Shown piece by piece: positions 3,108-59,693 of a stretch of DNA of 64,000 nt. The notes below the pieces were generated by a model. The model was not told where the DNA came from. It saw only the letters and a program-made list of their open reading frames with translations, and did not search any database. Each line of letters begins with the position of its first letter. Position 1 is the first letter of the stretch. The DNA comes from Candidatus Woesearchaeota archaeon (GTDB lineage Archaea > Nanobdellota > Nanobdellia > Pacearchaeales > GW2011-AR1). The position numbers and the translations under genes are program-made. Where the stretch lies: the NCBI GenBank assembly GCA_964494915.1, contig CAZBTP010000001.1, positions 6,792-70,791 of the forward strand, given 5' to 3'.

Positions 3108-6100
3108 CCGAGACTCTTTCGACATCCAAACGGATAATCAAACCACAAGAACTTAAAACACCGTCGACAAACGCCGAAACCGTTCTCGCTAACACAAACA
3201 TTGCCATCGGGACACTTAAGAAGTTCATAATCCAAAACATTCCCAGCACAATAATACACTCTTAGATTACGCCCCGGATAATAATCAGGATTACAAATAT
3301 CCTTTTGTTCAACGTACCCATCTTCCTGATTCCCTGTCACTGTATTCTTCACCTTTTTTATTGAGTCGTACGAGAGCGGGTCAGATTCCTTTTGTTGAGC
3401 AGCGCTGATCTGACCTCCGGTTCTGGTAGGGAATACTCTCCCCACAGGGTCATTGCATGTGTATCCAAGTTCCGTGGCATCAGTTTGTTCTTGGTTGTTT
3501 GTTTGCGAAGTTTGCGAGGAGGAAAATTTAATTTCTACATTAATTCCGCCATCAGACGTTATCTCTTTAACTTTTATCCTTAAATCATTATCGGGATCAT
3601 AAAACTCTTTTCCAATATTTAAGAAAGAATCTACAAAGTCGGTTCTTGTTATATCTTTAGATTCCTTTGGATAATCTGGCAAAGATTCAGGAGTCATATC
3701 AAGTAAATAGGTTGACCACGATTCATAATCTTCGGGTAAAAGGCCTCTAATTAAAATTCCATTAATATTGATTCCCATTCCCTCAAGACGTTTAAGTTTT
3801 TCGTCAAACCCAATAGATTGTCTAAATTCCAATAAATAAGAAGAAATTTCCAGTCCTTCTTTGTCGGATATAGATATATGATTCTTTAATGGAACTTTTA
3901 TTACTTTTAATTTAGAATTTACTTCTTCCAGAGGATAGAGAGTATAAACTCCGCTTTGCGAAACAACTTGAAAATTACTCTCTTCAAACCAGCCCAGACG
4001 TTTTTTGTGGTTCCCATTAAAATGATAAGCATACAACCTACCTCCCATAACATCAAACACATCGCTATAAGGGTCTATCGAGCACTTGGAGTAATCTTTA
4101 GTTATGATCTCTTTTCCACATTCATAAGTTATTGCATGTCCATTAATACCGAAACTATGTCCCAGCTCATGTGCAAAAACAGTATTTGCGGCAGGAAAAT
4201 GATCTTTTCCTCCCAAACTATCTCCATACGGAGAGAATATTTGGTCGAAGTAAATATGGGAAATGCCTATTTTTATTCTTCCGTCAGGAGTATCAATGAC
4301 TTTTTTTCCAAAAGATGAACTACCAAAAGCACCAGGGCAATTCTCGCGGAATACAATAATAATTCTATCATAATCCGGATAATAAACTTCATTATCGGCT
4401 ATCTCAAAAATTTCTTGATCGGTTCGAGAGCAAGAATCCTCTCCCTCTTTTAAATGATACCATCCATAAACATCCCCTGTCAACCATGTCTTTCCATAGG
4501 ACGCCTCTGTAATAAAACTAGTTATTGATTTTTGTGCCCCAGTATCAAAAATTGCCTTCTGGTAATCTGCTAGAGGGGTTTCACCATTATCGTTTAACAA
4601 ATCTACTAAAATCACAGCAATTTTTTGCTCACCTGATACATCGCCAATTTCAGCACAGCTCGATGCAGTAAAGGTTCGCAGGGGAGAATTCACTCCGTTC
4701 GATATCCATACACTATAGGTACTTCCCTCTTGCAAATTAAACCCGCTTCGTTCAATATATGTTCCAGAACTCGCGTGCCAGAATGTTCTCTCGCCACCGG
4801 ACGGCGCAACAACACTCATTGTTGGAGAAAGTACATAGCTATCCCAATAATCAGTTGGATATTCAGTCGTGTACGAACCAGGAGCAACAGCAATCCAATA
4901 TTTCCCACTTGAGGGGGCACTACCACCGCTCCACGAAATTGTTGCTTTTGACACACCATTCTCACACGAAAGAGACACACTAGGCTTGTTCACTGGCGTG
5001 ACAGAAGAAGTATTCTGAGTAGGTATTGGTTGCGTTGGTTGTTGTGTACTACAAATAGGAGTCGTTATACTAGTCATTCCTGAATTCTTGCCGTTAGAAA
5101 CCCAGAAACTATAAGCTTTATTTTCTTCCAAAACAAATCCTCCTTGTTGAATATATGTTCCATCTTTTGCGTGCCAGAATGCTCTCTCGCCACCATTCCA
5201 AGCAACAACACTTGTTGTAGAAGAACTAACATAGGTATCCCAATAATCAGTTGGATAGGTTGTGTGTAAGCCAGGAGCAACAGCAATCCAATATTTCCCA
5301 CTTGAGGGGGCACTACCACCGCTCCACGAAATTGTTGCTTTTGACACACCATTCTCACACGAAAGAGACACACTAGGCTTGTTCACTGGCGTGACAGAAG
5401 AAGTATTCTGAGTAGGTATTGGTTGCGTTGGTTGTTGTGTACTACAAATAGGAGTCGTTATACTAGTCATTCCTGAATTCTTGCCGTTAGAAACCCAGAA
5501 ACTATAAGCTTTATTTTCTTCCAAAACAAATCCTCCTTGTTGAATATACGTTCCAGAACTCGCGTGCCAGAATGTTCTCTCGCCACCGGACGGCGCAACA
5601 ACACTTGTCGTAGAAGAAGTAATATAAGTATATGTAGAAGAATTAACATTAGTACCTATAAAAGAACTGACATACGTATCCCAGTAATCAGTCGGATAGG
5701 TTGTGTGTGAACCAGGAGCAACAGCGATCCAATATCTCCCACTTGAAGGAGCACTACCACCACTCCATGAAATTGTTGCTTTTACAACGTTTCCATCACA
5801 AAACGCATTCACACTTGGCGCATTCGTCGGTATTATCTGAGGGCTCGTCCCGCTACATCTTTGGGCAGAAAATCTTGTTATTAGCGAATTTGAATTTGCA
5901 CCCTTCGATACCCATACACTATACTCAGCTCCATCTTCTAACGAGAATCCTCCTTGTTGAATATACGTTCCAGAACTCGCGTGCCAGAATGTTCTCTCGC
6001 CACCGGACGGCGCAACAACACTCATTGTTGGAGAAAGTACATAGCTATCCCAATAATCAGTTGGATAGGTTGTGTACGAACCAGGAGCAATAGCGATCCA

Positions 6101-6319
6101 ATATCTGTCACTCGCAGGATTAGGATCGCCACTCCAAACGATACTCGCTTTTGAGACACTATTTTCACAATACGTTTGCACAAAGGGTTGCGTAACCGGA
6201 CTTAATTGCGGACGCTTAAAACCGAACCATTCAAGAATATCATCGCCAAGCCCAGCAGAAACAAAGGGAATACCTAATAGTAAAACAATAACAAATCCAA
6301 GATAAATAATAGTTCTCAT
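3104..6319 (-). CDS. giant secreted modular protein with four approximately 100-aa W/Y-rich Cys-bounded repeat modules, a zinc metalloprotease domain (M6/InhA-like, HELGH) and a Cys-rich C-terminal domain
   Basis: Signal peptide MRTIIYLGFVIVLLLGIPFVSA. Repeated modules VSKATISWSGGSAP..YWIAVAPG..YPTDYWD..GGERTFWH..YSFWVSNG. PT-rich linkers QQPTQPIPTQNTSS. Protease region EQKIAVILV...EASYGKTWLTGDVYGWY...HELGHSFG. C-terminal GYTCNDP...CRRCFKFLWFDYPFGC. Confidence 0.7.
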   Translation of the reverse strand: MRTIIYLGFVIVLLLGIPFVSAGLGDDILEWFGFKRPQLSPVTQPFVQTYCENSVSKASIVWSGDPNPASDRYWIAIAPGSYTTYPTDYWDSYVLSPTMSVVAPSGGERTFWHASSGTYIQQGGFSLEDGAEYSVWVSKGANSNSLITRFSAQRCSGTSPQIIPTNAPSVNAFCDGNVVKATISWSGGSAPSSGRYWIAVAPGSHTTYPTDYWDTYVSSFIGTNVNSSTYTYITSSTTSVVAPSGGERTFWHASSGTYIQQGGFVLEENKAYSFWVSNGKNSGMTSITTPICSTQQPTQPIPTQNTSSVTPVNKPSVSLSCENGVSKATISWSGGSAPSSGKYWIAVAPGLHTTYPTDYWDTYVSSSTTSVVAWNGGERAFWHAKDGTYIQQGGFVLEENKAYSFWVSNGKNSGMTSITTPICSTQQPTQPIPTQNTSSVTPVNKPSVSLSCENGVSKATISWSGGSAPSSGKYWIAVAPGSYTTEYPTDYWDSYVLSPTMSVVAPSGGERTFWHASSGTYIERSGFNLQEGSTYSVWISNGVNSPLRTFTASSCAEIGDVSGEQKIAVILVDLLNDNGETPLADYQKAIFDTGAQKSITSFITEASYGKTWLTGDVYGWYHLKEGEDSCSRTDQEIFEIADNEVYYPDYDRIIIVFRENCPGAFGSSSFGKKVIDTPDGRIKIGISHIYFDQIFSPYGDSLGGKDHFPAANTVFAHELGHSFGINGHAITYECGKEIITKDYSKCSIDPYSDVFDVMGGRLYAYHFNGNHKKRLGWFEESNFQVVSQSGVYTLYPLEEVNSKLKVIKVPLKNHISISDKEGLEISSYLLEFRQSIGFDEKLKRLEGMGININGILIRGLLPEDYESWSTYLLDMTPESLPDYPKESKDITRTDFVDSFLNIGKEFYDPDNDLRIKVKEITSDGGINVEIKFSSSQTSQTNNQEQTDATELGYTCNDPVGRVFPTRTGGQISAAQQKESDPLSYDSIKKVKNTVTGNQEDGYVEQKDICNPDYYPGRNLRVYYCAGNVLDYELLKCPDGNVCVSENGFGVCRRCFKFLWFDYPFGCRKSLG
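4877..5547. repeat. intragenic tandem duplication in gene 3104-6319: about 280 nt of perfect identity at 390-nt offset
   Basis: The string from ccaggagcaacagcaatccaatatttcccacttgagggggcactaccaccgctcc to ccttgttgaatata occurs identically at about 4877-5157 and about 5267-5547. Confidence 0.8.
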
Positions 6320-6662: not shown

Positions 6663-9600
6663 CTATAAGTTCCTTTTGACATCCTCGAGATACTTGCTGT
6701 AGCCGCTTAGTACCTTTTGACATCCAAATGGGTAATCGAACAACCAGAAGTTAAAGCATCTTCGACAAGCACCAACCCAAAAACCAAGATTCTTATCATT
6801 GATACATATATGGTTCTCTGGACACTTAAGTATTTCATATTTTAGTGCATTCCCAACACAATAAGGCACCTGCAGATCATAACCAGAAGGACTACAAAGA
6901 TCTGATACTTCAAAATCTCCTACTCCTTGATTTCCCGTAACAGTATTCTTCTCCTTTTTTATTAAGTCGTATGAGAGGGGATTGAGTATCATATCTTTAT
7001 TACTTCTACCTGGTCTTGTAGGGAATACTCTCCCCGCAGGGTCATTGCATGTGTATCCAAGCTGTCCTGCGTCAACAACAGCAGGCGCAGGCGGTGTTGT
7101 TGATCCTTCAGCTCCACTACATGTAACACTAACGCTATTGCTATTCGCGTCTAATCCTTCATCACCGCCATCGATGTAATAGGTATGACTTCTGACAGAG
7201 GCTTCAAAACTAGTTGACAGCAAGGTCTGCCCGATAACTACATCACTTGGTTGCTCAACAAACTTTACAACTTGATTATTCTCTACAACATTATATCCGC
7301 TAACTGAATTAATACTGGCCCATGATAAATCAACGCGTGTACCGCTGCAGAAGCCAGCTAGTGAGATCTCGAACTGTGTTGGTGTTGGCGTTGTTGTACC
7401 CGGTGTCGGACTTTGAACATCTCGGGGCGGACTAATACAATAATAGATCACTCTTCCATTTCTATCTTCAAACGATCCTATAACACTATCGCTCCCGCAA
7501 CCGTTATACTGAACATACACATTTGTCAAGAACACGGTATTTTCTGAAAATGAAGACTTCCTCACACACTGATACACGACCGCCCCCTTTCCGTCAAGGA
7601 ACCAACTGCCAACACGATCGCCCACGATCCCACAACCTTCTGCACTATCGCGGAAGTAAACATGAGTAACATACTCTTTTCCAGGACTACCAACAGACTT
7701 CCGTACACAATGATTAATCCGCCGTCCATTAGCATCATCAAACCAACTTGTAACATCATCACCCCCACAAGTATCATACTGAAAATAAGCCCCTTCCACA
7801 ATCCCTATTGAAACAGTCAAGGGAGGCGTCGTAATACCATTCGCCTTTAACTCTCGGAAGATATTCCTCGCCAAACCAGGATCGCGTTGGCTACCAAAAA
7901 ATCCCCCAGGTTTCTCAAACAAGAAATCAACCAGTGTCTCCTGAAATGCAGCATCAATCCTTCCAGAACTCAACCTGCTTTGCAACGTATCAGCCATCGA
8001 ATTACTCAATTCGCGAACACGCTGAACAGCAGAACTACCTAGATCAGAACTGAGTGTGGCATCATCAACAATAAGTTCTTTCAATACCTTCTCGCCAAGT
8101 TCAGCATTCCGCGGCGTATTCAAAAGACCACGAACACCATAGAGGTAATCTAACAAACTAATCTGAAACTCAACATCAATATTACGCGCATTAAACTTCG
8201 TCTCTAAATTACTTGCCATCCCTGGATCTTTATCCTGTAAATAACTGATAACTTCGTCTTTCAACGCACCGCTAATCATATATCCATTTAACACAATAGG
8301 TAATGTTCCTTCTCCACCTTGTTCTCCTCCAGTTCTACCAGATACAATATCAGCACAGCTCATTGCGGTAAAGGTTTGCAGAAGAGAATTCACTCCATTT
8401 GATATCCATACACTATAGGCACCCCCTTCCTGCAAGGTAAACCCACTCTGTCCGATATATGTTCCAGAACTCGCGTGCCAGAATGTTCTCTCGCCACCAG
8501 ACGGAGCAACAACACTGGTCGTAGAAGAACTAACATACGTATCCCAATAATCAGTTGGGTAGGTTGTGTGTGAGCCAGGAGCAATAGCGATCCAATATCT
8601 CCCAGTTGAAGGAGCAGCGCCACCAGACCATGAAATCGTTGCTTTTGAGACGCCATTCTCACACAAAAGGGACACACTAGGCTTGTTCACTGGCGTGACA
8701 GAAGGAGTATTCTGAGTAGGTGTTGGTTGCGTTGGTTGCTGTGTACAAATAGGAGTCGTTATACTAGTCATCCTTGAATTCACGCCGTTAGAAACCCAGA
8801 AACTATAAGCTTTATTTCCTTCCAAAACAAGCCCACTTTGTCCGATATATGTTCCATCTTTTGCGTGCCAGAATGTTCTCTCGCCACCAGACGGAGCAAC
8901 AACACTTGTCGTAGAAGAACTAACATATGTATCCCAATAATCAGTTGGATATTCGGTCGTGTACGAACCAGGAGCAACAGCGATCCAATATCTCCCAGTT
9001 GAAGGAGCAGCGCCACCGCTCCACGAAATCGTTGCTTTTGCAACGTTTCCATCACAAAACGGAGTTAAAGATGGAGGATTCACCGGCGCTATCTGAGGAG
9101 GGGTGGCTGTAGTGGTTGGCGTCGGTGTAGGTTGTGGAGTTAATTGTTGCGTACAAATAAGGGCACGGAAATGGGTCCTTCCTGAATTCACGCCATTAGA
9201 TACCCAGTAAGTATACTCTTTCGTTGGTTCCAAAACAAATCCTCCTTGTTGAATATACGTACCGTCTTTCACATGCCAAAATGTTCTCTCGCCACCAGTT
9301 GGAACAACAACACTTGTTGTAGAAGAACTTACATAGCTGTCCCAGTAATCAGTTGGATAGGTTCCATATAAGCCGGGAGCAACAGCAATCCAATATCTTC
9401 CACCTGAGGGAGCACCACCACCGCTCCACGAAATCGTTGCTTTTGCAACGTTTCCATCACAAAACGGAGTTAAAGATGGAGGATTCACCGGCGCTATCTG
9501 AGGAGGGGTGGCTGTAGTGGTTGGCGTCGGTGTAGGTTGTGGAGTTAATTGTTGCGTACAAATAAGGGCACGGAAATGGGTCCTTCCTGAATTCACGCCA

Positions 9601-10361
9601 TTAGATACCCAGTAAGTATACTCTTTCGTTGGTTCCAAAACAAATCCTCCTTGTTGAATATACGTACCGTCTTTCACATGCCAAAATGTTCTCTCGCCAC
9701 CAGTTGGAACAACAACACTTGTTGTAGAAGAACTTACATAGCTGTCCCAGTAATCAGTTGGATAGGTTCCATATAAGCCGGGAGCAACAGCAATCCAATA
9801 TCTTCCACCTGAGGGAGCACCACCACCGCTCCACGAAATCGTTGCTTTTGAAACATCATTTTCACAAAACGTAAGCACCGTTGGAGTCACGCGGCAACCT
9901 GAGGCAATAAACTGTATTATTTGAGAGTTCGCCCCATTTGAGATCCATACACTATAAGTACTTCCACTTTGCAAGGTAAACCCACTTTGTTCAAAATATG
10001 TTCCGGAACTTGCATGCCAGAATGCTCTATCGCCACCAGTTGGAACAACAACACTTGTCGTAGAAGAACTTACATAGCTGTCCCAGTAATCAGTTGGATG
10101 AGTTGCATGTACACCAGGAGCAACAGCAATCCAATATCTTCCACCTGAGGGAGCACTACCACCGCTCCACGAAATCGTTGCTTTTGAAACATCATTTTCA
10201 CAGTAAACGCGTACTCCGATTTGATTTATAGGTTCCGGACTCAATTGCGGACGCTTAAAACCAAACCATTCAAGAATATCATCGCCAAGCCCAGCAGAAA
10301 CAAAGGGAATACCTAATAGTAAAACAATAACAAATCCAAAATAGATTGTAGTTCTCATCAT
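6663..10361 (-). CDS. giant secreted modular protein paralog with six W/Y-rich repeat modules, no HExxH domain, a triplicated small Cys motif, an FN3-like segment and the shared Cys-rich C-terminal domain
   Basis: Signal peptide and first 40 aa nearly identical to gene 3104-6319, as are the 5'-end nucleotides 10270-10361 versus 6228-6319. Same module consensus and C-terminal GYTCNDPAGRVFPTRPG...CRRCFNFWLFDYPFGCQK. Confidence 0.7.
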   Translation of the reverse strand: MMRTTIYFGFVIVLLLGIPFVSAGLGDDILEWFGFKRPQLSPEPINQIGVRVYCENDVSKATISWSGGSAPSGGRYWIAVAPGVHATHPTDYWDSYVSSSTTSVVVPTGGDRAFWHASSGTYFEQSGFTLQSGSTYSVWISNGANSQIIQFIASGCRVTPTVLTFCENDVSKATISWSGGGAPSGGRYWIAVAPGLYGTYPTDYWDSYVSSSTTSVVVPTGGERTFWHVKDGTYIQQGGFVLEPTKEYTYWVSNGVNSGRTHFRALICTQQLTPQPTPTPTTTATPPQIAPVNPPSLTPFCDGNVAKATISWSGGGAPSGGRYWIAVAPGLYGTYPTDYWDSYVSSSTTSVVVPTGGERTFWHVKDGTYIQQGGFVLEPTKEYTYWVSNGVNSGRTHFRALICTQQLTPQPTPTPTTTATPPQIAPVNPPSLTPFCDGNVAKATISWSGGAAPSTGRYWIAVAPGSYTTEYPTDYWDTYVSSSTTSVVAPSGGERTFWHAKDGTYIGQSGLVLEGNKAYSFWVSNGVNSRMTSITTPICTQQPTQPTPTQNTPSVTPVNKPSVSLLCENGVSKATISWSGGAAPSTGRYWIAIAPGSHTTYPTDYWDTYVSSSTTSVVAPSGGERTFWHASSGTYIGQSGFTLQEGGAYSVWISNGVNSLLQTFTAMSCADIVSGRTGGEQGGEGTLPIVLNGYMISGALKDEVISYLQDKDPGMASNLETKFNARNIDVEFQISLLDYLYGVRGLLNTPRNAELGEKVLKELIVDDATLSSDLGSSAVQRVRELSNSMADTLQSRLSSGRIDAAFQETLVDFLFEKPGGFFGSQRDPGLARNIFRELKANGITTPPLTVSIGIVEGAYFQYDTCGGDDVTSWFDDANGRRINHCVRKSVGSPGKEYVTHVYFRDSAEGCGIVGDRVGSWFLDGKGAVVYQCVRKSSFSENTVFLTNVYVQYNGCGSDSVIGSFEDRNGRVIYYCISPPRDVQSPTPGTTTPTPTQFEISLAGFCSGTRVDLSWASINSVSGYNVVENNQVVKFVEQPSDVVIGQTLLSTSFEASVRSHTYYIDGGDEGLDANSNSVSVTCSGAEGSTTPPAPAVVDAGQLGYTCNDPAGRVFPTRPGRSNKDMILNPLSYDLIKKEKNTVTGNQGVGDFEVSDLCSPSGYDLQVPYCVGNALKYEILKCPENHICINDKNLGFWVGACRRCFNFWLFDYPFGCQKVLSGYSKYLEDVKRNL
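9016..9825. repeat. perfect 405-bp (135-codon) tandem duplication, two copies, inside gene 6663-10361
   Basis: About 433 nt starting caccgctccacgaaatcgttgcttttgcaacg is identical at 9013-9445 and 9418-9850. The encoded module LTPFCDGNVAKATISW...QIAPVNPPS appears twice verbatim. Confidence 0.9.
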
Positions 10362-35042: not shown

Positions 35043-35128
35043 CGTCCCGGAGAGGACTCGAACCTCTGACCCCATGGTGTCTGTACGACGATAACAGCCA
35101 TGTGCTCTGCCAGCTGAGCTACCGGGAC
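35043..35128 (-). tRNA. tRNA-Asn (anticodon GUU) with 13-nt intron after position 37
   Basis: Cloverleaf GUCCCGG-UA-GCUCAGCUGGCAGAGC-A-CAUGG[CUGUUA+UCGUCGUACAGAC+A]CCAUG-GGGUC-AGAGGUUCGAGUCCUCU-CCGGGAC-G. No CCA encoded. Confidence 0.75.
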
Positions 35129-36288: not shown

Positions 36289-36816
36289 ATGGCACAACGA
36301 CATCGGTTACGTCATACAATCGTATTTACTATTTTGTTATTAGTTCTAATGCTTCTTATCTTGTCATATAGACATCTTTCGTACGCTGAACAAAGATCGC
36401 ACCCCCGAGAGAGTCGTGTTTTAAAAAATCCTGTCGAAGACCTAAGTGACGAAGAAGCAATTGCGCAGTTTAATGAAGACTTTGTTTTGTACCTATTATA
36501 CACAATAAAAGCACAGAGATTGCACAATCCTCCACTAAGCAAGAGTACGCCGAAAATAGAGGTTTTTGTTGACGAGGACGTGTATCGTGCAGAAGTTATC
36601 GATAACGTAATTTACGTTGGGCGCGGGCGTTTTTCTGCGAAAGATATTGTTATTACAACAAGTGCTCGAGAAGCAGTTCAGATGTTGCGTGATCAATCAC
36701 ATATTGTCGAATCGTTTGCACAAGGAAATTCGCATCTTGAAATCATCGAGGACAAAGTAACATTATTTGCAAAAGGATACCGAGAGATTCATAATGAAGT
36801 AACGAAAAAGACGTGA
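36289..36816 (+). CDS. hypothetical membrane-anchored protein
   Basis: N-terminal TM TIVFTILLLVLMLLILSY followed by a soluble domain. Confidence 0.4.
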   Translation: MAQRHRLRHTIVFTILLLVLMLLILSYRHLSYAEQRSHPRESRVLKNPVEDLSDEEAIAQFNEDFVLYLLYTIKAQRLHNPPLSKSTPKIEVFVDEDVYRAEVIDNVIYVGRGRFSAKDIVITTSAREAVQMLRDQSHIVESFAQGNSHLEIIEDKVTLFAKGYREIHNEVTKKT

Positions 36817-37268: not shown

Positions 37269-37754
37269 TTGAATGGCCCAGACGGACTTCGTGATAAAAA
37301 GTTTCAAAGTAGGGTAATCTCAACATCTTTGTTTTCTGGAAAGTTTTTTATACCGCCTCTTCTTAGATCAAAAATGAGAAAGGAAGTCGGCAATTGGTTA
37401 AAACAGGCAAATAAAGACTTAGAAGTAGCAGAAAAGAATATCAAAATTGAAGAATATTACTCTGCTGTTTTTTGGTGCCAGCAAGCTGTTGAAAAAGGAT
37501 TAAAAGCAGTATATATACTAAAACATAATACCTTGCCGCCAAAAATACACGACTTAGTAGAAATTTGTAGATTGGTAAAGGCACCAGACAACATAGTCTT
37601 GCTGTCCGGGAAGATCGTCACAGCATACATATTCTCACGTTATCCGGGGGCTGCTCCAGAGATGCCCGAAGACTATTATGACAAGGGCAAGGCAGAAGAA
37701 CATGTTAAAATAGCTAAGGAGGTTCTAGAATGGGTTATAAAACTGATAAAATAA
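37269..37754 (+). CDS. HEPN-domain protein
   Basis: FWCQQAVEKGLKAVYILKHNTLPPKIHDL, typical of the HEPN helical core. Start may be MRKEVGN at about 37374. Confidence 0.6.
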   Translation: MNGPDGLRDKKFQSRVISTSLFSGKFFIPPLLRSKMRKEVGNWLKQANKDLEVAEKNIKIEEYYSAVFWCQQAVEKGLKAVYILKHNTLPPKIHDLVEICRLVKAPDNIVLLSGKIVTAYIFSRYPGAAPEMPEDYYDKGKAEEHVKIAKEVLEWVIKLIK

Positions 37755-38047
37755 TTAATTCTTTTGTAAAAAAAGTTAGAAATAAGGTTCCTTCGTCAAG
37801 AATTTATTTATTTGGCTCTAGGGCGAGGGGAACTGCAAAAAAAGGTAGTGATTACGACTTCCTTATTATAAGTAAGGATTTCAGAAATTTTAATTTTGAA
37901 GAAAGATCTGCCAAGATTTATTTTCTAAAAAGAAAGATTCCTGCGGCGATGGATATTTTATGCTACACTCCAGAAGAATTTGAAAAAAAGAAAAAGCAGA
38001 TTGGTATTGTTAAAATCGCTGTTGAAGAGGGAATCGAGATAAAATGA
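37730..38047 (+). CDS. minimal nucleotidyltransferase (MNT)
   Basis: IYLFGSRARGTAKKGSDYDFLII (GS-x9-DxD). Overlaps HEPN gene end. Confidence 0.7.
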   Translation: MGYKTDKIINSFVKKVRNKVPSSRIYLFGSRARGTAKKGSDYDFLIISKDFRNFNFEERSAKIYFLKRKIPAAMDILCYTPEEFEKKKKQIGIVKIAVEEGIEIK

Positions 38048-39825: not shown

Positions 39826-39896
39826 AAGAGAGTATCGACTTAGATATTTATAAACTGTCGCCTCGCTGCACGCCTTTTCATCACCACGAATAAAAA

Positions 39897-39977
39897 TGGG
39901 GCTGCCGGGATTCCCGTAACGAGCTGTGCGAGTGAGGGCACCGCGGAGCTTTGCTCTGCGAGTGCGTGCGAATCCTA
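39897..39977 (-). other. 81-nt 3' trailer of tRNA-Pro ending in an exact 18-nt copy of the tRNA 3' end, followed by oligo-U
   Basis: atggggctgccgggattc occurs at 39895-39912 and 39981-39998. AAAAA at 39892-39896 gives U5 on the minus strand. Internal 10-bp inverted repeat gtgcgaatcc/ggattcgcac. Confidence 0.6.
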
Positions 39978-40051
39978 TGGGGCTGCCGGGATTCGCACCC
40001 GGGTCGCAAACCCCCGAAGCTTGAAGGTTAACTAAACTACCCCACAGCCCC
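39978..40051 (-). tRNA. tRNA-Pro (anticodon CGG)
   Basis: GGGGCUG-UG-GGGU-AGUUUAGUUA-ACCU-U-CAAGC-UUCGGGG-GUUUG-CGAC-CCGGG-UGCGAAU-CCCGG-CAGCCCC-A. The D-loop is atypical, hence moderate confidence. Confidence 0.55.
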
Positions 40052-40082
40052 GTAAGAAAAAGAGATTATTAGAGATTATAAA

Positions 40083-40153
40083 TGCGCTGACCGGGAGTTG
40101 AACCCGGGCGATCACCTTGGGAAGGTGACATCATACCGTTAGATCATCAGCGC
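40083..40153 (-). tRNA. tRNA-Gly (anticodon CCC)
   Basis: GCGCUGA-UG-AUC-UAACGGUAU-GAU-G-UCACC-UUCCCAA-GGUGA-UCGC-CCGGGUUCAACUCCCGG-UCAGCGC-A. Confidence 0.75.
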
Positions 40154-44501: not shown

Positions 44502-44885
44502 ATGACTATGAAAGACTTGTTTGATGCAAAGATCGTGTGTAAGCAATGTGACGTACAGATGAAACCAATCTACGTCGAAAAGTCTGGTTTTCGTCTGCGA
44601 GCAATTCACTGTCCACACTGCAATGATAAGATTATTCATCCCGGAGATTTACACGATTTAGAGCAGTATAATGGCTTGCGGCAGAAAACGTTCGATGTGA
44701 AATTACGTATGGTAGGAAACAGCCATGCAATCAGTATCCCGAAAGAGATTGTTGATTTTATTAATGAAACACACCAGCGCATGCATAAACAGATGAGCGA
44801 TATGGTACGTTTAGGATTTGAGGATTTTGGAAAGTTGAGCATTACATTTTTTAATGATGCTCAAAAGAGGGGGCGCGAATGGTAA
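44502..44885 (+). CDS. zinc-ribbon plus AbrB/SpoVT-like (swapped-hairpin) small protein, translationally coupled to cdc48
   Basis: CKQCD...CPHCN ribbon. [22 protein letters not shown] resembles AbrB/MazE. Stop overlaps the CDC48 start (ATGG at 44879). Confidence 0.5.
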
Positions 44886-47800
44886 AGAGCACAGGTATTA
44901 AACTAAAAGTCGTTGAGTCATTGCAAGACGATGTATACAAAGGAGTTGCACGAATCGATCCGCAGATCATGCGATCGATGGGTTTGATGAGGGGCGATAT
45001 TATCACAATTCAAGGCGGGCGAGAAACGCAAGCGATTGTCGATCGTGCATACCCTGCTGATGTCGGCGAGAGTATTATTCGTATCGACGGTCTGATCAGA
45101 AAGAATGCGCGTATTGGCGTCGGTGAGCACGTTATCGTCAAGAAAGCAACGAGCAGACCAGCAACAAAGGTCATTATTGCACCTGCACAGCAAGGGATTA
45201 TGGTACAAGGCGATCCTGAAATGTTAAAGCAGGGTTTGTTAGGACGCCCAGTTGCAAAGGGAGATATCATCTCATTAGGAGGAGTGCATCGCCGGAGAGA
45301 TAGTATAGGTGATGGTTTTCCTGACTTCTTCGGCGATCTACATGATCTGTTCGGAGGGCATCTTGCATTTCCTGGCTTTCAACACCTACGATTTATCGTC
45401 GTTTCAACAATACCAAATCAGCAGTGTTTTATCAATGAAGATAGCGAGATCGTACTAAATCCAAAGGCCGTTGATATCTCTGAAGATGCAATGCCGGGTA
45501 TTACATACGAAGAGATTGGCGGTTTAAGGGACGAGATTAAAAAAATACGTGAAATGGTCGAACTTCCGTTGAAACATCCTGAGATCTTTGAACGTCTTGG
45601 CATTGACGCGCCAAAGGGAGTTTTATTACATGGTCCACCAGGAACTGGAAAGACACTCCTCGCAAAGGCTGTGGCGAATGAGTCCGATGCTAATTTCATT
45701 TTGTTAAATGGTCCTGAGGTCATGAGTAAATTTTACGGGGAATCTGAGAAAAAGATTAGAGATATCTTCGAAGAAGCAGAGAAGCATGCACCGAGCATTA
45801 TCTTTTTCGACGAGATTGATGCGATCGCGCCGAAGCGAGAGGATGTACAAGGAGAGGTTGAACGAAGGGTGGTAAGTCAGTTATTATCAATGATGGATGG
45901 TTTAAAGTCAAGAGGAAAGGTTGTTGTTATTGGAGCGACAAATAGGGTTAATTCTGTTGATCCTGCGTTACGAAGACCTGGAAGATTTGACCGAGAGATT
46001 GAGATCTCTGTCCCCGGAAAGGAGGCGCGTTTAGATATACTAAAGATTCATACGCGAAATATGCCATTAACAAAAAATGTCAATCTTGATATGCTTGCAG
46101 GAAAGACGCACGGTTTTGTTGGCGCTGATTTGTCCGCGTTGACAAAAGAGGCTGCGATGAATGTTCTACGAAAGATGCTACCTGAGCTTAAGATGGACAG
46201 TGAAGAACCAATACCAAAGGAGGTTTTGGAAAAAGCTATTGTTCGCGTCGAGGACTTTGAAGATGCATTAAAGGTTGTACGCCCGAGTGCAATGAGAGAA
46301 GTTTTTGTTGAAACACCAAATGTTTCCTGGGAAGACGTTGGTGGCCTAGAAAAAACAAAGCAAGAATTGAAGGAAGCCGTTGAATGGCCGATTACGAATC
46401 CTGACGGCTTTAAACGACTCGGTATCAGAGCACCACGGGGAATCTTGTTGTATGGACCTCCAGGAACAGGGAAGACGCTATTAGCGAAGGCAGTTGCGAA
46501 GGAATCTGAGGCAAACTTTATTCATATTAAAGGACCTTCGCTATTAAGTATGTGGGTCGGAAAGTCGCTTCCCTATGAGGAAGAGGTTATTGTAATGAAA
46601 AATGGGCTTGTTGATAGAAAACCCATTGGAAGGCTTGTTGAAAACAAAGAGAAGGCTGATGTTATAAGTTTTGATAAACATAAAAAAGTAAAGTTCTCTC
46701 CGATAAAGGATTTTATACTCCATAATTCGGATGGGTCTCTTGTTGAGATCACTACTGCAAGTGGTAGGAAGATTCGTGTAACGAAAGATCATTCATTGTT
46801 TAGTTTGTATGGTACTGAGATTATTGATCTGCCAACGACTCATCTTAAAGAGAATGAGAGCTATATTGCGATTCCGCGGAAACTTCCTCTTCCTGAGATC
46901 GAACCGGAGCCGATTAATCTCTTGCATGTTCTTGAGGAAGAAATTTCTGTTTCTTTTAATAGCTATATTGGGGAAGCGGTTAAGGTGTTAGGAAAAGAAC
47001 GATCTGCCGAAGTACTTGAGATACCTCTAAAGTATATGTATGATGTGCTTAGCAAAGAGTTGGCGATCTCCGCAAAAGGATTTCTAGCCCTCATGAAGGA
47101 AGCAGGAATAGCGTTCGACTATAAGCAGACTAGTATCCATGTACGAAATAGCACCCACTCAATGCAAGCTTCTTTGATTATTACTCCAGAATTGTGCGAA
47201 CTTCTTGGACTATGGGTTGCTGAAGGCGATTACAATAAAAAAAGCGTTCGTATTCATGCGATGAATAAGGAGATACGAATGAGAGTGAGAGAACTTTTAG
47301 ATGTCTGTCGTTTACCCTTCTCGACTAATAAAGAAACCTTTAGTATCAACTCGTTATTATTCCAGCGTATCATGAAGGAAGTTTTCAAGTTATATGATAA
47401 AGCCCATAATAAGCGAATACCTGCTTTGGTGTTTACTTTACCACGGCGATATATTCATTCTTTTTTGAGAGGTTATTACAGTGGAGATGGTTCTATTTAT
47501 TCTACGAATGGAAGAAGTTCTGCTATTGAAGCTGCGACAAAAAGTGAGAAACTAGCGAATGATTTACTTTATCTATTGTTAGGGCTTGGTATCGTTGGAA
47601 GGGTTTATGAAAAGAGCATTGATACAGAACGCTATTATCGAGTTATGTTTATGGGAGTCGACTATCTCACCGTATTTAGCGAGATAGGCTTTATTGATAC
47701 CAAGAGAAATAATAGGATTCTGTTGTACATTAAAAGTAAGAAATGGAAAAGAAGTGATAATATTCCTATTACAGGAGATTTGTACACGCTTCTTCCAAAA

Positions 47801-48619
47801 TCACGAAGATCGAATGAAAGTATTGAACGAGAAGAACTGAGAAAGATTGGGAACCAGTTGAATAATGAAAACATATTAAAATTGGTTGATGCCGATGTTT
47901 ATTTTGATAAGGTCGTTGAAATTACCAATCTCGACTATTCTCTCCCTGTATACGATCTAACAATAAATCCAACTGAGAATTTTGTTGCAGGATTTGGTGG
48001 TGTGTTCGTGCATAATAGCGAAGAAGGCGTTCGAAAGGTTTTTGAGCGCGCGCGGCAGGTCGCACCCTGTGTTGTGTTCTTTGACGAGATTGATGCACTT
48101 GCAGGAAAACGAGGGTTAGAAGTCGGGACAAAGGTAACCGAACGTGTTTTGAATCAGCTCTTAGCAGAGATTGACGGTCTTGAAGACCTAAAAGACGTAA
48201 CTATTATTGGTGCTACGAATCGGCCAGATATGTTAGATCCGGCTATCTTACGACCAGGAAGGTTCGATCGAGTGATCTTGGTTGATATACCCGATGAAAC
48301 AAGTCGTCAGAGAATTTTAGAGATCCATACCAAAAAGACACCGTTGGGAGACGACGTTGATATACGCGAGCTTGTAAAGTTAACCGATGGTTTTGTTGGT
48401 GCTGATTTAGAAGCGTTAGTACGTGAAGCTGCGCTGAATGCATTACGGAAAGATAACAGCGCGAGTATGGTGATGCTTGATGATTTCGACGAAGCGTTCA
48501 AGAGGGTTAAACCCTCAGTATCGCGCGACACTGCGCAGCGATACAAAAAGATCGAAGAGTATTATTTAAAGCGAGCAAAAGCAGGATTAGAAAGTTCCAG
48601 CCCTATGTATGCAGGATAA
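44879..48619 (+). CDS. cdc48: CDC48/VCP-like AAA+ ATPase containing a 484-aa LAGLIDADG intein in the D2 domain
   Basis: N-domain, two Walker A GPPGTGKT, two DEID Walker B, SRH. Extein about 762 aa once 46565-48016 is removed. Confidence 0.9.
46565..48016 (+). mobile_element. intein with LAGLIDADG homing-endonuclease domain inserted between WVGK and SEEGVRK of CDC48 D2
   Basis: Begins with Ser, ends VHN followed by Ser. Motifs [11 protein letters not shown] and [13 protein letters not shown]. Flanks reconstitute the CDC48 consensus LLSxWVGESE. Confidence 0.85.
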
Positions 48620-56861: not shown

Positions 56862-59693
56862 ATGGGAATAAAGAAAGTAAGTGAGAACGTCTGGGAAATC
56901 GAAAAAGAAGGAAGGATGCTAGTTCCAGGGATTGTGTTTGCCTCAGATAGCTTAATGGCTTCAATTCAAAAAGATAAGACACTCGAACAAGTGAAAAACG
57001 TTGCACAGCTTCCAGGAATTGTTGGATATTCTCTCGCGATGCCAGATGCACATCAAGGATATGGAATGGCTGTCGGAGGTGTAGCCGCGTTTGATTCCGA
57101 GCACGGAATTATTTCTCCCGGAGCAGTAGGTTATGACGTGAACTGCTTAACGGGCGATACAGAAATCCTTACAGAATTCGGAAATTCGATAAAAATTGAA
57201 GAATTTGAAAAATACAAATCAGAAATAGAAATTGAACAAAATAACCAAAAAATTAAAAAAATAATATTCTCGCGCAATCTGCCAACCTTAAACCTTGATA
57301 CAAAAAAAATAGAAGATAAATCTATTAATTTATTTATGTCAAGGCACGCGGAAGATGTATGTGAGATAACTTTAGCATCCGGCTTAAAAATTAAAGCTAC
57401 AAGCGATCATCCTTTTTTAACAAAACAAGGAATGAAAAAATTATCTGAATTAAAAGATAACACAGAACTAGCAATAAATACTTTTGAAGGAGTTGAATCC
57501 AGCGAAGTGATAAATGAAAAGGAAGCAATCCTTGCAAAGTTAATTGGTTATATGTTTGGGGATGGTTCCTTCTACGAAACAAAAGGAGAATTACGTGCGG
57601 TAGCTTATGGGCAAAAAGAAGACCTTGAAAAAATAAAGGAAGACTTATCAAGATTAGAAATAAATTCAAGTCTCTTTTGCAGAATAAGGGAGCATAAAAT
57701 ACAGACTCGTTATGGCGAAAAAAGTTTTAATTCTACAAACTGGGAGTTACATATTTATAATCAAGCTTTTCTTAAGATTTTAAAAGAAAGAGGTCTCACG
57801 TTAGGAAATAAAACAAGGCAGAAAATCAGGGTTCCCGAATGGATAAAAAAGTCAAGTAAATTAACAAAAAGATTATTTTTAGCTGGTTTTTTCGGCGCAG
57901 AAATGTCATCTCCTAAAACACTCTCTAGAACATGCTTTTGTAGCTCAACTATTAATCAGAATAAAATAACCTTACTAAAAAAAAACTGTAGAGATTTTCT
58001 TATAGACATCTCTCTGCTTTTAGAAGAATTTGGGATTAAAAATTACAAAATATCAGAGATGGAGGATTATATCAATAAATACAAAGAAAAAACATCAAGA
58101 TTAAGGCTAGCTTTATACGGAGAGGATACAATGTTAAAACTATGGAGAACAATAGGTTTTGAGTATAATAAAAAAAGACAGGACTTGGCAAACATAGCCT
58201 CTTTGTATATCTTACTAAAAAAGCAGGAAAATCAACGGAGGATTGAACTGGCTAGAAAAATAAAACAATACAGGAAAAATGGACTTACAATAGCAGAAGT
58301 AAAGGGACTCTTCCATAAAGAGATTAACGAAAGATTTATAGAAAGGCACTATTACGAAAATGCAAAACAAAGAATCAATCTTGATTTTATTACTTTTAAT
58401 GAGTTCAGAGATATAAAACTCAAAGAAATAAGAGAAATTGGGACTCTTCTTGACAAAATAATTTCTATTAAAAAGATAGAAGGCATACATAAAGTTTATG
58501 ATTTTAACATTCAGGATAATCATAATTTTATTGCAAATGGCTTTATAGTTTCGAATTGTGGAGTACGATTGCTTGCGACGAATATAACGAAAAAAGAATT
58601 TTTACCGAAACGAGGAATAGTATTAAATGAACTCTATAAGAATGTGCCGTCCGGCATCGGAAGAGGAACAGGAATAAAACTTTCAGATGCTGAATGTAAC
58701 GCGGTCTTAGAAAAGGGATTAAAATGGGCACGAGAAAAAGGATATGCGTCTGAGGAAGATATTGAGCACACAGAAGATAAGGGCTGTATTCAAGGAGCGA
58801 ATGCAGCAAAAGTTTCGCAAAGAGCAAAAGCAAGAGGCAGGGATCAGCTCGGGAGCATTGGGGCAGGAAATCATTTCCTTGAAGTACAAGAGATCGTGGA
58901 GATTTTTGATGATCGTGTTGCAAAAACGTTTGGATTAAACGAAGTCAAACAGATCGTAGTAATGATCCATACCGGCTCACGAGGGTTAGGACACCAAACT
59001 GCATCAGATTATATTATGAAAATGGAAAAAGAGTATGGATATAAACACCTTCCAGATCGCGAGTTGGCATATGCGCCAATTACTTCTGCTTTGGGAAAAG
59101 ACTATAGAGAAGCAATGGCGAGTGCTGCTAATTTCGCATTTACAAATCGGCAGATGATCACGCATCTTATAAGAAAAAGTTTTGAGAAGTATTTTCCAAA
59201 CGCGAAACTAAGCGTTGTGTATGATATCGCACATAATATTGCGAAGCTTGAGGAGTTCGAAGTCGAGAACGAGAAAAAAATATTGTGCGTACACCGAAAA
59301 GGTGCAACTCGATCATTTGGACCAGGAAGAAAAGAAATTCCGAGCGATTATAGAGAGGTAGGCTGTCCGATTTTTATTCCAGGAAGTATGGGAACATTTT
59401 CGTATGTCCTCGTCGGAACAAAGAAAGCACGTGAGATTTCGTTTGCGTCAACAGCCCATGGTGCTGGACGAATGCTATCAAGGACGTACGCAAAACAACA
59501 TATTTCTGCTGAGCATTTAAAACAAGGGCTAGCAGAAAGAGATATTATAATTAAAGCTGGATCGCTAAAAGGCATGATTGAAGAAGCGCCAGAGGCGTAT
59601 AAGGATGTGAGCGAGGTTGTTCGTGTTTCACATGCGCTCGGTATTGGAAGCGTAGTTGCAAAGCTGAAACCATTAGCCGTAATGAAAGGGTGA
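56862..59693 (+). CDS. rtcB: RNA-splicing ligase RtcB containing a 471-aa LAGLIDADG intein
   Basis: PDAHQGYG, GYDVN-CGVRL split by the intein, GAGNHF, HTGSRGLGHQ. Extein 472 aa. Confidence 0.9.
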   Translation: MGIKKVSENVWEIEKEGRMLVPGIVFASDSLMASIQKDKTLEQVKNVAQLPGIVGYSLAMPDAHQGYGMAVGGVAAFDSEHGIISPGAVGYDVNCLTGDTEILTEFGNSIKIEEFEKYKSEIEIEQNNQKIKKIIFSRNLPTLNLDTKKIEDKSINLFMSRHAEDVCEITLASGLKIKATSDHPFLTKQGMKKLSELKDNTELAINTFEGVESSEVINEKEAILAKLIGYMFGDGSFYETKGELRAVAYGQKEDLEKIKEDLSRLEINSSLFCRIREHKIQTRYGEKSFNSTNWELHIYNQAFLKILKERGLTLGNKTRQKIRVPEWIKKSSKLTKRLFLAGFFGAEMSSPKTLSRTCFCSSTINQNKITLLKKNCRDFLIDISLLLEEFGIKNYKISEMEDYINKYKEKTSRLRLALYGEDTMLKLWRTIGFEYNKKRQDLANIASLYILLKKQENQRRIELARKIKQYRKNGLTIAEVKGLFHKEINERFIERHYYENAKQRINLDFITFNEFRDIKLKEIREIGTLLDKIISIKKIEGIHKVYDFNIQDNHNFIANGFIVSNCGVRLLATNITKKEFLPKRGIVLNELYKNVPSGIGRGTGIKLSDAECNAVLEKGLKWAREKGYASEEDIEHTEDKGCIQGANAAKVSQRAKARGRDQLGSIGAGNHFLEVQEIVEIFDDRVAKTFGLNEVKQIVVMIHTGSRGLGHQTASDYIMKMEKEYGYKHLPDRELAYAPITSALGKDYREAMASAANFAFTNRQMITHLIRKSFEKYFPNAKLSVVYDIAHNIAKLEEFEVENEKKILCVHRKGATRSFGPGRKEIPSDYREVGCPIFIPGSMGTFSYVLVGTKKAREISFASTAHGAGRMLSRTYAKQHISAEHLKQGLAERDIIIKAGSLKGMIEEAPEAYKDVSEVVRVSHALGIGSVVAKLKPLAVMKG
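57144..58556 (+). mobile_element. intein with LAGLIDADG homing endonuclease in RtcB at the GYDVN/CGVRL site
   Basis: Starts CLTGDTEIL (block A), LIGYMFGDGSF and FLAGFFGAEMS LAGLIDADG motifs, ends IVSN followed by Cys. Terminal Asn is preceded by Ser rather than His. Confidence 0.85.

Follow-up and report, generated by a model that had tools for sequence, protein, structure and literature searches.

What does it mean when a tRNA gene is followed, a few dozen nucleotides downstream, by a second copy of its own 3′ end? Here we ask this of a tRNA-Pro gene in a 64,000-nucleotide stretch of a Candidatus Woesearchaeota archaeon (GenBank assembly GCA_964494915.1, contig CAZBTP010000001.1, positions 6,792 to 70,791 of the forward strand), a stretch that we call the window at its full length and whose positions are used throughout. 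An earlier note on this DNA had read the duplication as the scar of a lost integrated element or, alternatively, as a sign of non-standard processing of the transcript. Our analysis suggests that the insert of about 60 nt between the two copies is itself the conserved unit. Related inserts with the same order of parts stand behind other tRNA-Pro genes and behind a tRNA-Leu gene of DPANN archaea, and they carry a perfect complement of the T-loop region of the tRNA that they follow. In the window the parts of this arrangement are these, in the order in which the gene is read:

39978 to 40051, minus strand: tRNA-Pro(CGG), 74 nt, CCA not encoded (ARAGORN and Rfam RF00005).
39989 to 39998, minus strand: 5′ arm of helix alpha, GTGCGAATCC, which is tRNA G53 to C62, comprising the last T-stem pair, the T-loop and the first 2 bases of the T-stem 3′ strand (repeat search).
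39977 to 39994, minus strand: repeat copy 1, tRNA G57 to A73 and the next T, the 3′ end of the functional gene (exact 18-mer).
39966 to 39975, minus strand: alpha′, GGATTCGCAC, the exact reverse complement of tRNA 53 to 62, starting 2 nt past the discriminator (repeat search and position mapping).
39938 to 39965, minus strand: beta hairpin, GCAC-U-CGC-A-GAGC/AAA/GCUC-C-GCG-GUGC (4 bp, 1-nt bulge, 3 bp, A.C mismatch, 4 bp, loop; from folds).
39914 to 39937, minus strand: gamma segment, CCTCACTCGCACAGCTCGTTACGG, whose ends, CCCTCRC ... TACGG, the Pro and Leu modules have in common (alignment and regular expression).
39896 to 39913, minus strand: repeat copy 2, a displaced tRNA 57 to 73 and T with no T-arm before it (exact 18-mer; its downstream flank aligns with the sister species' native trailer).
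39892 to 39896, minus strand: T5 run directly past the discriminator of copy 2 (sequence).

The 18-mer GAATCCCGGCAGCCCCAT occurs exactly twice on the minus strand, with 81 nt from start to start, and none of 100 dinucleotide shuffles matched this repeat. The earlier note had described it correctly, except that its coordinates (39981-39998 and 39895-39912) were off by 1-4 nt and its spacing of 86 nt was too large. It had also rightly seen that the second copy runs into five T residues, which likely act as the archaeal terminator of the tRNA-Pro transcript; no run of three or more T follows copy 1. The inverted repeat that it had pointed out is exact as well: the arms GTGCGAATCC and GGATTCGCAC form a perfect 10-bp helix and are separated by 13 nt, and a perfect 10-bp inverted repeat arose anywhere in a 201-nt random sequence of the same composition in 0.7% of trials. 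The insert between the repeats is 63 nt long, hairpin-rich and non-coding. The identical structure recurs in a second assembly, made independently from another sample (ERZ27284376, L001/L003), and the arrangement is therefore no artefact of a single assembly, with the caveat that two or more tandem units may have been merged by a short-read assembler.

The tRNA in front of the insert is a genuine gene. The earlier call as tRNA-Pro is borne out by ARAGORN, which the note had proposed and which assigns the anticodon as Pro(CGG), and by Rfam RF00005, for which the gathering score is 29 and the gene reaches 48.9 bits, a value that is modest because of A18 and G55. The D-loop (AGUUUAGUUA) has no GG, as had been observed, and lacks G18; the T-loop reads UGCGAAU, with G55 in place of U55, which is near-universal in tRNAs. 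What had been taken for an atypical D-loop is, however, no defect: a G18-less D-loop (..UUAGUUA) accompanies the T-loop UGCGAAU in every DPANN tRNA-Pro that we retrieved (L009, L010, L012, L013, L015, L018, L019, L046 and the window), and the two deviations look as if they had covaried to replace the tertiary contact G18-U55. Since G55 was part of the retrieval pattern, the sample is biased and the D-loop side alone is an independent observation. In the syntenic sister species L006 (GCA_964413975.1) the tRNA-Pro is 100% identical though the adjoining acyltransferase is only 74% identical, which argues for purifying selection and against a pseudogene. In a scan of species-representative genomes, the tRNA-Pro 3′ sequence had matches only in metagenome-assembled genomes (MAGs) of Woesearchaeota and Pacearchaeota.

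This same sister species presents the locus without the insert. Its tRNA-Gly, the gene upstream, is likewise 100% identical to that of the window, and the alignment of the two loci has a single gap of exactly 81 nt; the repeat and 63 new nt are therefore a lineage-specific gain in the window's lineage or a precise loss in L006. Directly past its sole tRNA end L006 has TTT, and its trailer (TTTAGGTTCGCGGT...GACAGTTTATAAATA) aligns with the sequence past copy 2, not with that past copy 1. Copy 2 retains the native trailer, the T-run and the TATA box of the downstream gene. The earlier note's integration sign stands to this extent, that the two copies act like a regenerated and a displaced end and that the site in L006 is exactly empty; the idea of a scar left by random deletion does not, as similar inserts recur at tRNA-Pro and tRNA-Leu. 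The note had further held that conservation of the trailer in relatives, as part of a different non-coding RNA, would speak against its reading. Homologues do occur in distant relatives, but the closest relative lacks the insert and no known RNA family matches it.

The recurrence came from tRNA-Pro loci gathered by scanning JGI metagenomes for the tRNA-Pro 3′ end, together with species-representative genomes. About 10 distinct DPANN tRNA-Pro loci were retrieved, and three hold an insert. In L020 and its population (L046-L054), which belong to another DPANN lineage, the order is tRNA-Pro(CGG) - TT - GGATTCGCAC - GCACACGCAGAATGCGTTCCGCGGTGC - CCTCGCGCTCACGCGCTACGG - GAATCCCGGCAGCCCCAT; this insert is 77% identical to that of the window, about 10 standard deviations over shuffled controls, and its alpha′ is unchanged. 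A third MAG, L010, has a more divergent insert (z = 2-3) of about 79 nt behind tRNA-Pro(GGG), with the parts in the same order. The plan common to them starts with the tRNA end, which is followed by 10 nt that are the reverse complement of T-loop positions 53-62, by a hairpin, by a conserved segment ending in TACGG and by a copy of tRNA 57-74, with inserts of 59-63 nt apart from the longer one of L010. The three Pro modules also share the architecture of the beta hairpin (stem, 1-nt bulge, 3-bp stem, A.C mismatch, apical stem), which is kept through compensatory changes: CGC/GCG becomes CAC/GUG in L010, and GAGC/GCUC becomes GAA/UUC in L020 or GACAC/GUGUC in L010.

Tandem copies are present as well. 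In two assemblies from different samples the 77-nt unit of the L020-type Pro module stands head to tail, giving three tRNA-end copies, while two other assemblies hold one unit only, a difference that may be assembler collapse; the unit-to-unit junction means that at least two units exist somewhere. In L010 a scaffold gap of 100 N opens exactly where a second unit would begin.

The module behind tRNA-Leu was reached through a neighbouring NUDIX protein, which led to contigs L046-L055. There a tRNA-Leu(CAA) gene adjoins tRNA-Pro and reads ...GGTTCGAATCCTAATATCCGCA - TAGAA - GGATTCGAAC - GTCCAGAGATTCGCAAATCTCTGGC - CCCTCACGCTCACGCGTTACGG - GAATCCTAATATCCGCAT. The repeat is again 18 nt long and starts at G57, and gamma agrees with the Pro gamma at 20 of 22 positions, counted by eye, with the same CCCTCRC...TACGG ends; the beta hairpin is unrelated in sequence to that of the Pro modules. 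Alpha′ (GGATTCGAAC) is the exact reverse complement of tRNA-Leu 53-62, the region of the T-loop GTTCGAATCC, and the sole difference between the Pro and Leu versions of alpha′ (C as against A) pairs with position 55, which is G in Pro and U in Leu. As this position is not part of the duplicated block, alpha′ fits the actual tRNA and not the module's own copy of it. In two strains, L047 and L050, C has changed to A in the distal Leu copy, which would disrupt the acceptor stem, and the proximal copy is unaltered, so the proximal copy is the functional one. The family thus described spans three lineages and two tRNA identities.

Several further observations belong to these loci. In the tRNA-Leu of L055 (1164-1249, minus strand) the two acceptor strands, GCGAGGG on the 5′ side and TATCCGC on the 3′ side, are not complementary, and from the anticodon arm onward, module included, the gene equals the L046 allele; either the k-mer assembly is chimeric here, or recombination brought in the module together with a 3′ half of foreign origin. 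Behind tRNA-Arg(CCT) in L046 (1661-1760, plus strand) lies a structured trailer of about 100 nt that is closed by the stem CCGAAAGG/CCTTTCGG and has two hairpins inside; it ends in GGCGCG, which resembles the last bases of that tRNA. This trailer may be distantly related to the modules, or it may be a small RNA without any relation to them. Sampling by way of neighbouring proteins brought up no further member of the Pro/Leu family and one different case, in the groundwater DPANN contig L066 (3548-3775). There tRNA-Ser(GCT) is followed by an AT-rich insert of 126 nt with three hairpins and by a 14-nt copy of the tRNA end, CCTGGTCCGGGCGT, with ParE/MazE genes just past it; the footprint is alike, the insert family is different and the boundary falls at position 60/61. 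The trailers after the last tRNA-end copy, namely TTTTTATTCG in the window (39882-39891), TTTCTATTCG in L020 (207-216) and TTTAGGTTCG in L006 (about 7778-7787, minus strand), all hold an ATTCG/GTTCG core complementary to the T-loop, even in L006, which has no module; the trailers of other DPANN tRNA-Pro genes are without it.

How would such an arrangement fold? The minimum free energy structure of the 161-nt window precursor (-71.1 kcal/mol) forms helix alpha, which buries copy 1, and closes the acceptor stem with copy 2, compared with -50.3 kcal/mol for the cloverleaf with a separately folded trailer. If equilibrated, the full-length transcript would be predicted to misfold its tRNA, which is presumably rescued by co-transcriptional folding and rapid 3′ cleavage. 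The trailer alone is no more stable than shuffled sequence (z = -0.47). All eight module hairpins are more stable on the strand antisense to the tRNA, by 0.8-4.3 kcal/mol, and whole units reach -33.7 to -35.0 kcal/mol there as against -23.7 to -27.2 kcal/mol on the sense strand; the A.C, C.A and UC/CU mismatches of the sense strand turn into G.U or tandem G.A pairs. We have no explanation for this preference, which rests largely on homologous and hence non-independent sequences.

Our preferred reading, held tentatively, is that of a miniature, non-autonomous module that would insert site-specifically at tRNA 3′ ends, be mobilised or amplified in trans and be tolerated by tRNA processing. What it builds on directly are the insertion polymorphism, with the exactly empty site in L006, the recurrence at tRNA-Pro and tRNA-Leu, the common anatomy, an alpha′ matched to its tRNA and the tandem copies; it is further favoured by the mutated distal Leu copy, which behaves as a displaced fragment would, by the likeness to integrase footprints and casposase targets described below, and by the lack of an Rfam family or intron motif. 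The unit consists of alpha′, the beta hairpin and gamma, bracketed by the direct repeat of tRNA 57-74, and its insertion point would fall within the segment from the T-loop to the 3′ end. The tRNA-proximal repeat completes the functional tRNA, the distal one would be the displaced old end with its native trailer and terminator, and units can multiply in tandem. Since there is no terminator before copy 2, the module would be transcribed within the pre-tRNA, and the trailer would presumably be cut off by the normal 3′-end endonuclease, probably RNase Z, after A73 of copy 1. The insertion itself may be the work of a trans-acting site-specific recombinase or integrase, whether tyrosine-integrase-like or with a staggered integration like that of Cas1 or a casposase. 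Other conceivable routes would be homologous recombination that draws on the tRNA at one flank and on the 18-nt copy at the other, or a leftover of a larger element's terminal repeats, comparable to a solo repeat. Alpha′ may serve target pairing or the propagation of the module.

A number of observations weigh against a mobile module. Among the 40 window open reading frames scanned with Pfam, where only housekeeping genes came up, and in the flanking contig there is no integrase, casposase, transposase or reverse transcriptase, and IMG/VR (where we had chance coding matches or nothing), JGI metagenomes and phage and plasmid collections gave no free or larger element that bears the module. Scans for a junction of the phage attachment site (attP) type (gamma - tRNA 57-74 - alpha′) likewise found no match, with exact patterns and in collections poor in DPANN elements. 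The module has no terminal inverted repeats, its left end (AGGATTCGCAC...) showing no inverted symmetry with the reverse complement of its right end (CCGTAACGAGC...), and a unit of 77-96 bp would be at or below the size that a tyrosine recombinase could excise as a circle. The differences in unit number between assemblies may stem from assembler collapse. Vertical inheritance with loss in L006 is possible as well, because the instances are few and the lineages sparsely sampled, and the compensatory hairpin changes and the exact tRNA-matched alpha′ would suit a selected RNA function equally.

Some known families and structures were set aside on the way. Against Rfam 15 only tRNAs reached the gathering threshold, and a search of 39840-40000 on both strands with E up to 10 returned noise of at most 13 bits; by eye, the module has no C/D or H/ACA boxes, hammerhead core or k-turn. 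No second, distant copy of GAATCCCGGCAGCCCCAT that could bound a large island was found in the window (allowing up to 2 mismatches) or at the related loci, and the window holds no further copy of the insert, while the L046 population holds two related copies. Helix alpha as the core site of a tyrosine recombinase was rejected because the spacing of its arms varies (13, 16 and 28 nt). A coding insert was rejected too, its open frames only mirroring G+C richness and the 77-nt unit shifting frame from unit to unit. Readings as an IS200/IS605-like element, an integron attC site, a structure like a retroviral primer-binding site or a rolling-circle origin do not suit 18-nt direct repeats.

Among known systems, the nearest are the integrative elements of archaea and bacteria that target tRNA genes by means of tyrosine integrases, with a regenerated tRNA and a displaced 3′ fragment as attL and attR. 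Duplicated tRNA 3′ ends are their classical mark (PMC9897764; PMC8371274), and archaeal integrases of this kind usually leave an identity block that begins in the T-loop and extends to the tRNA 3′ end, their favoured sublocation (PMC8371274). The modules are like them in an identity block that runs from within the T-loop to just beyond the 3′ end, in a gene that is completed by the proximal copy and a distal copy that is a dispensable fragment, and in the relative's empty site, the tandem occupancy and the several tRNA targets. They are unlike them in having 59-79 nt between the repeats where the elements have kilobases, in being conserved hairpin-rich units without integrase or cargo, and in carrying a 10-nt exact reverse complement of the target T-loop that varies with the tRNA.

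Casposons of family 2 target the 3′ ends of tRNA-Pro in Aciduliprofundum boonei and tRNA-Leu in Methanosarcina mazei (PMC5137440; PMC6977970), and they are alike in hitting the same two tRNA identities with a duplication of constant length; the palindromic T-arm directly upstream of the duplicated segment may also be compared with the casposon 'leader'. For casposons, tandem insertion upstream of earlier copies has been predicted, and casposases can insert very short DNA (PMC5137440; PMC6977970). Their duplications are, however, 14-15 bp long and overlap the last 4-5 bp of the tRNA, whereas the module's repeat is 18 bp with 17 inside the tRNA, and the module is without terminal inverted repeats and about 100-fold smaller. 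Membership in this group was rejected on the terminal inverted repeats, the duplication length and the genes, neither casposase nor PolB being seen in the insert or in the window reading frames scanned.

Miniature inverted-repeat transposable elements (MITEs) and cis-mobilizable elements (CIMEs) also invite comparison, as tiny, non-coding sequences flanked by direct repeats of the target, with related copies at different sites in one genome, polymorphic in presence and absence and capable of tandem accretion. In contrast to MITEs, the module has no terminal inverted repeats, and it has one copy in the window and two related ones in the L046 population. CIMEs are kilobases long and bacterial and keep only att sites. 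For neither comparison did we identify an autonomous parent element of the module. The non-canonical introns and the disrupted (split or permuted) tRNA genes of archaea resemble it because here, too, a DPANN tRNA gene has extra sequence around its T-loop, and a population-level model ties the integration of mobile elements to tRNA gene disruption (PMC3293823); unlike those introns, the module has no bulge-helix-bulge motif and its tRNA is complete without splicing.

If the module is not mobile, it may be there for the sake of the transcript. A selected, co-transcribed 3′-trailer RNA, either a cis element of pre-tRNA maturation or a released small RNA, would pair alpha′ with the T-loop and the 5′ acceptor strand with the spare 3′ end, and could control the folding, processing or turnover of tRNA-Pro and tRNA-Leu. 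The covariation of alpha′ with the T-loop outside the duplicated block (G55/C in Pro, U55/A in Leu), the compensated beta architecture of the three Pro modules, the need for the module to be transcribed when no terminator stands ahead of copy 2 and the precursor fold that uses copy 2 for the acceptor all fit such an RNA. We nevertheless consider it unlikely: the identical tRNA works without a module in the closest relative, most other retrieved DPANN tRNA-Pro genes are likewise module-free, and the predicted alternative fold would inactivate the tRNA, not aid it. The trailer's stability at the level of shuffled sequence, hairpins that without exception favour the opposite strand, a distal Leu copy that is decaying in some strains and the lack of an Rfam match point the same way. 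The other alternative that concerns processing, under which the non-standard processing of the earlier note would fall, is a non-canonical intron or programmed second 3′ end, in which the 81 nt would be spliced out and the mature tRNA would end with copy 2. The thermodynamic pairing of the 5′ acceptor strand with copy 2, the RtcB ligase encoded in the window and the frequency of tRNA introns in DPANN archaea (the tRNA-Asn of the window and the tRNA-Pro of L012 and L013 are examples) lend it some colour, and the Leu module has a weak, relaxed helix-bulge-helix (hBH) candidate at 59/60 with the central helix UUCG:CGGG and two G.U pairs. That candidate is not conserved, being broken by G55 in the Pro modules. 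A general bulge-helix-bulge scan of the window, L020 and L010 precursors, with a relaxed scan of 19 tRNA-restoring registers, found no such motif in a tRNA-restoring register of the window or the L046 Pro module, where there is only a self-complementary CCGG helix of 4 bp with 1-bp flanks. Moreover, the candidate 5′ splice sites fall within the continuous 10-bp helix alpha, the tRNA is already complete with copy 1, the sister species is missing the insert and some strains have the acceptor-breaking mutation in the distal Leu copy, all of which makes this alternative barely credible, and the non-standard processing of the earlier note fails with it.

The strand preference raises the thought of an antisense structured small RNA or single-stranded DNA feature on the plus strand (about 39896-39976), whose tRNA-like repeats would be tRNA-complementary ends. 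Besides the greater antisense stability in eight of eight hairpin comparisons and in whole units, and the conversion of sense mismatches into G.U or tandem G.A pairs, that strand gives the gamma loop the sequence GUGA, a tetraloop of the GNRA type, and a palindromic box, TTTATAAA, lies about 42 nt past copy 2. We hold it to be highly improbable: the plus strand has no T-run terminator, so a transcript would continue antisense through tRNA-Pro and tRNA-Gly, the three Pro modules are homologous and their mismatch pattern is largely one inherited observation, neither strand matches Rfam, and the promoter is purely conjectural. A one-off remnant with neither function nor mobility, from a large element that was nearly all deleted or from an accident of slippage or template switching near the palindromic T-arm, has in its favour the classical meaning of duplicated tRNA 3′ ends (PMC9897764; PMC8371274). 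Fold-back synthesis could yield the inverted T-loop copy, and the tRNA-Ser insert of L066 shows that such footprints are common in DPANN archaea. It is disfavoured because the module recurs: independent events would not be expected to yield, across lineages and at two tRNAs, inserts of equal length (59-63 nt) and 77% identity whose parts follow one order and whose boundaries coincide (53-62, and from G57), and the known archaeal elements between such repeats measure 9-23 kb (PMC9897764). We judge it distinctly improbable. None of these models accounts for alpha′ as an exact, tRNA-specific complement of 53-62, which is the most interesting loose end. One further version of the preferred reading, which is built on this feature and which we think quite unlikely, would make alpha′ the guide of a retargetable mini-element: it would pair with the T-loop strand across the insertion point (53-62) while the 3′ tRNA copy pairs with the opposite strand, and thereby steer insertion or copying to the matching tRNA, Pro with G55 or Leu with U55. 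Its active form would be a folded antisense single strand of RNA or DNA, and tandem arrays would arise by repeated or rolling copying.

The neighbours of the tRNA-Pro gene are archaeal housekeeping genes that encode TFS, CDC48 and RtcB (each of the latter two with an intein), FtsZ and aminoacyl-tRNA synthetases. Immediately upstream lie two further features:

40083 to 40153, minus strand: tRNA-Gly(CCC), followed by a 31-nt spacer and tRNA-Pro.
40075 to 40082, minus strand: TTTATAAT, a TATA-box-like element at -24 to -31 of tRNA-Pro (sequence and alignment).

From its position, TTTATAAT may be the promoter of tRNA-Pro. The Gly-Pro spacer is 31 nt long in the window (40052-40082), where it holds the direct repeat AGAGATTAT twice, as against 5 nt in L006 (7864-7868), and with the TATA-like element in it, tRNA-Pro may therefore have acquired its own promoter in the window's lineage.

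Elsewhere in the window, ARAGORN with default settings reports a 'tRNA-Stop (tta)' at 35043-35128 (minus strand). This is an artefact, since with introns allowed the gene is tRNA-Asn(GTT) with a 13-nt intron beside the anticodon (CTGTTAT + CGTCGTACAGACA), and there is no suppressor tRNA. The inteins of CDC48 (44879-48619, plus strand) and RtcB (56862-59693, plus strand) have LAGLIDADG domains, as does one in eRF1 just outside the window (L089, 1774-4185); the CDC48 of the sister species (762 aa) has no intein. A HEPN and minimal nucleotidyltransferase pair, resembling a toxin-antitoxin system, lies at 37269-38047 (plus strand) upstream of a Toprim gene and tRNA-Lys. It is absent from the sister species, which has a DUF2334 gene (L006, 5965-6744) between tRNA-Lys and TFS instead. 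Synteny between the two breaks over about 955-36300 of the window and 1-4934 of L006: the metallophosphatase gene adjoins MetRS in the window and, in the sister, the counterpart of a 173-aa gene (window 36289-36816), which would mean that about 35 kb was relocated or inverted with one breakpoint near tRNA-Asn. For two very large open reading frames, at 3104-6319 (minus strand, 1071 aa) and 6663-10361 (minus strand, 1232 aa), Pfam gave no match at E up to 1e-5.

In practical terms, cassettes of this kind break short-read assemblies at tRNA genes and may mislead the annotation of tRNAs and islands. A partial tRNA copy is usually taken to mark the edge of a kilobase-sized island; here the entire 'island' appears to be a conserved cassette of about 60 nt. 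If it is a selected trailer RNA, it would represent an undescribed layer of pre-tRNA biology, in which the predicted precursor strongly prefers a fold that disables its tRNA. If it is mobile, the cassette would be among the smallest site-specific elements known and would imply an as yet unidentified tRNA-directed recombination activity in DPANN archaea; and if it is indeed guided by alpha′, it would define a new class of element, minimal and tRNA-homing, in their reduced genomes.

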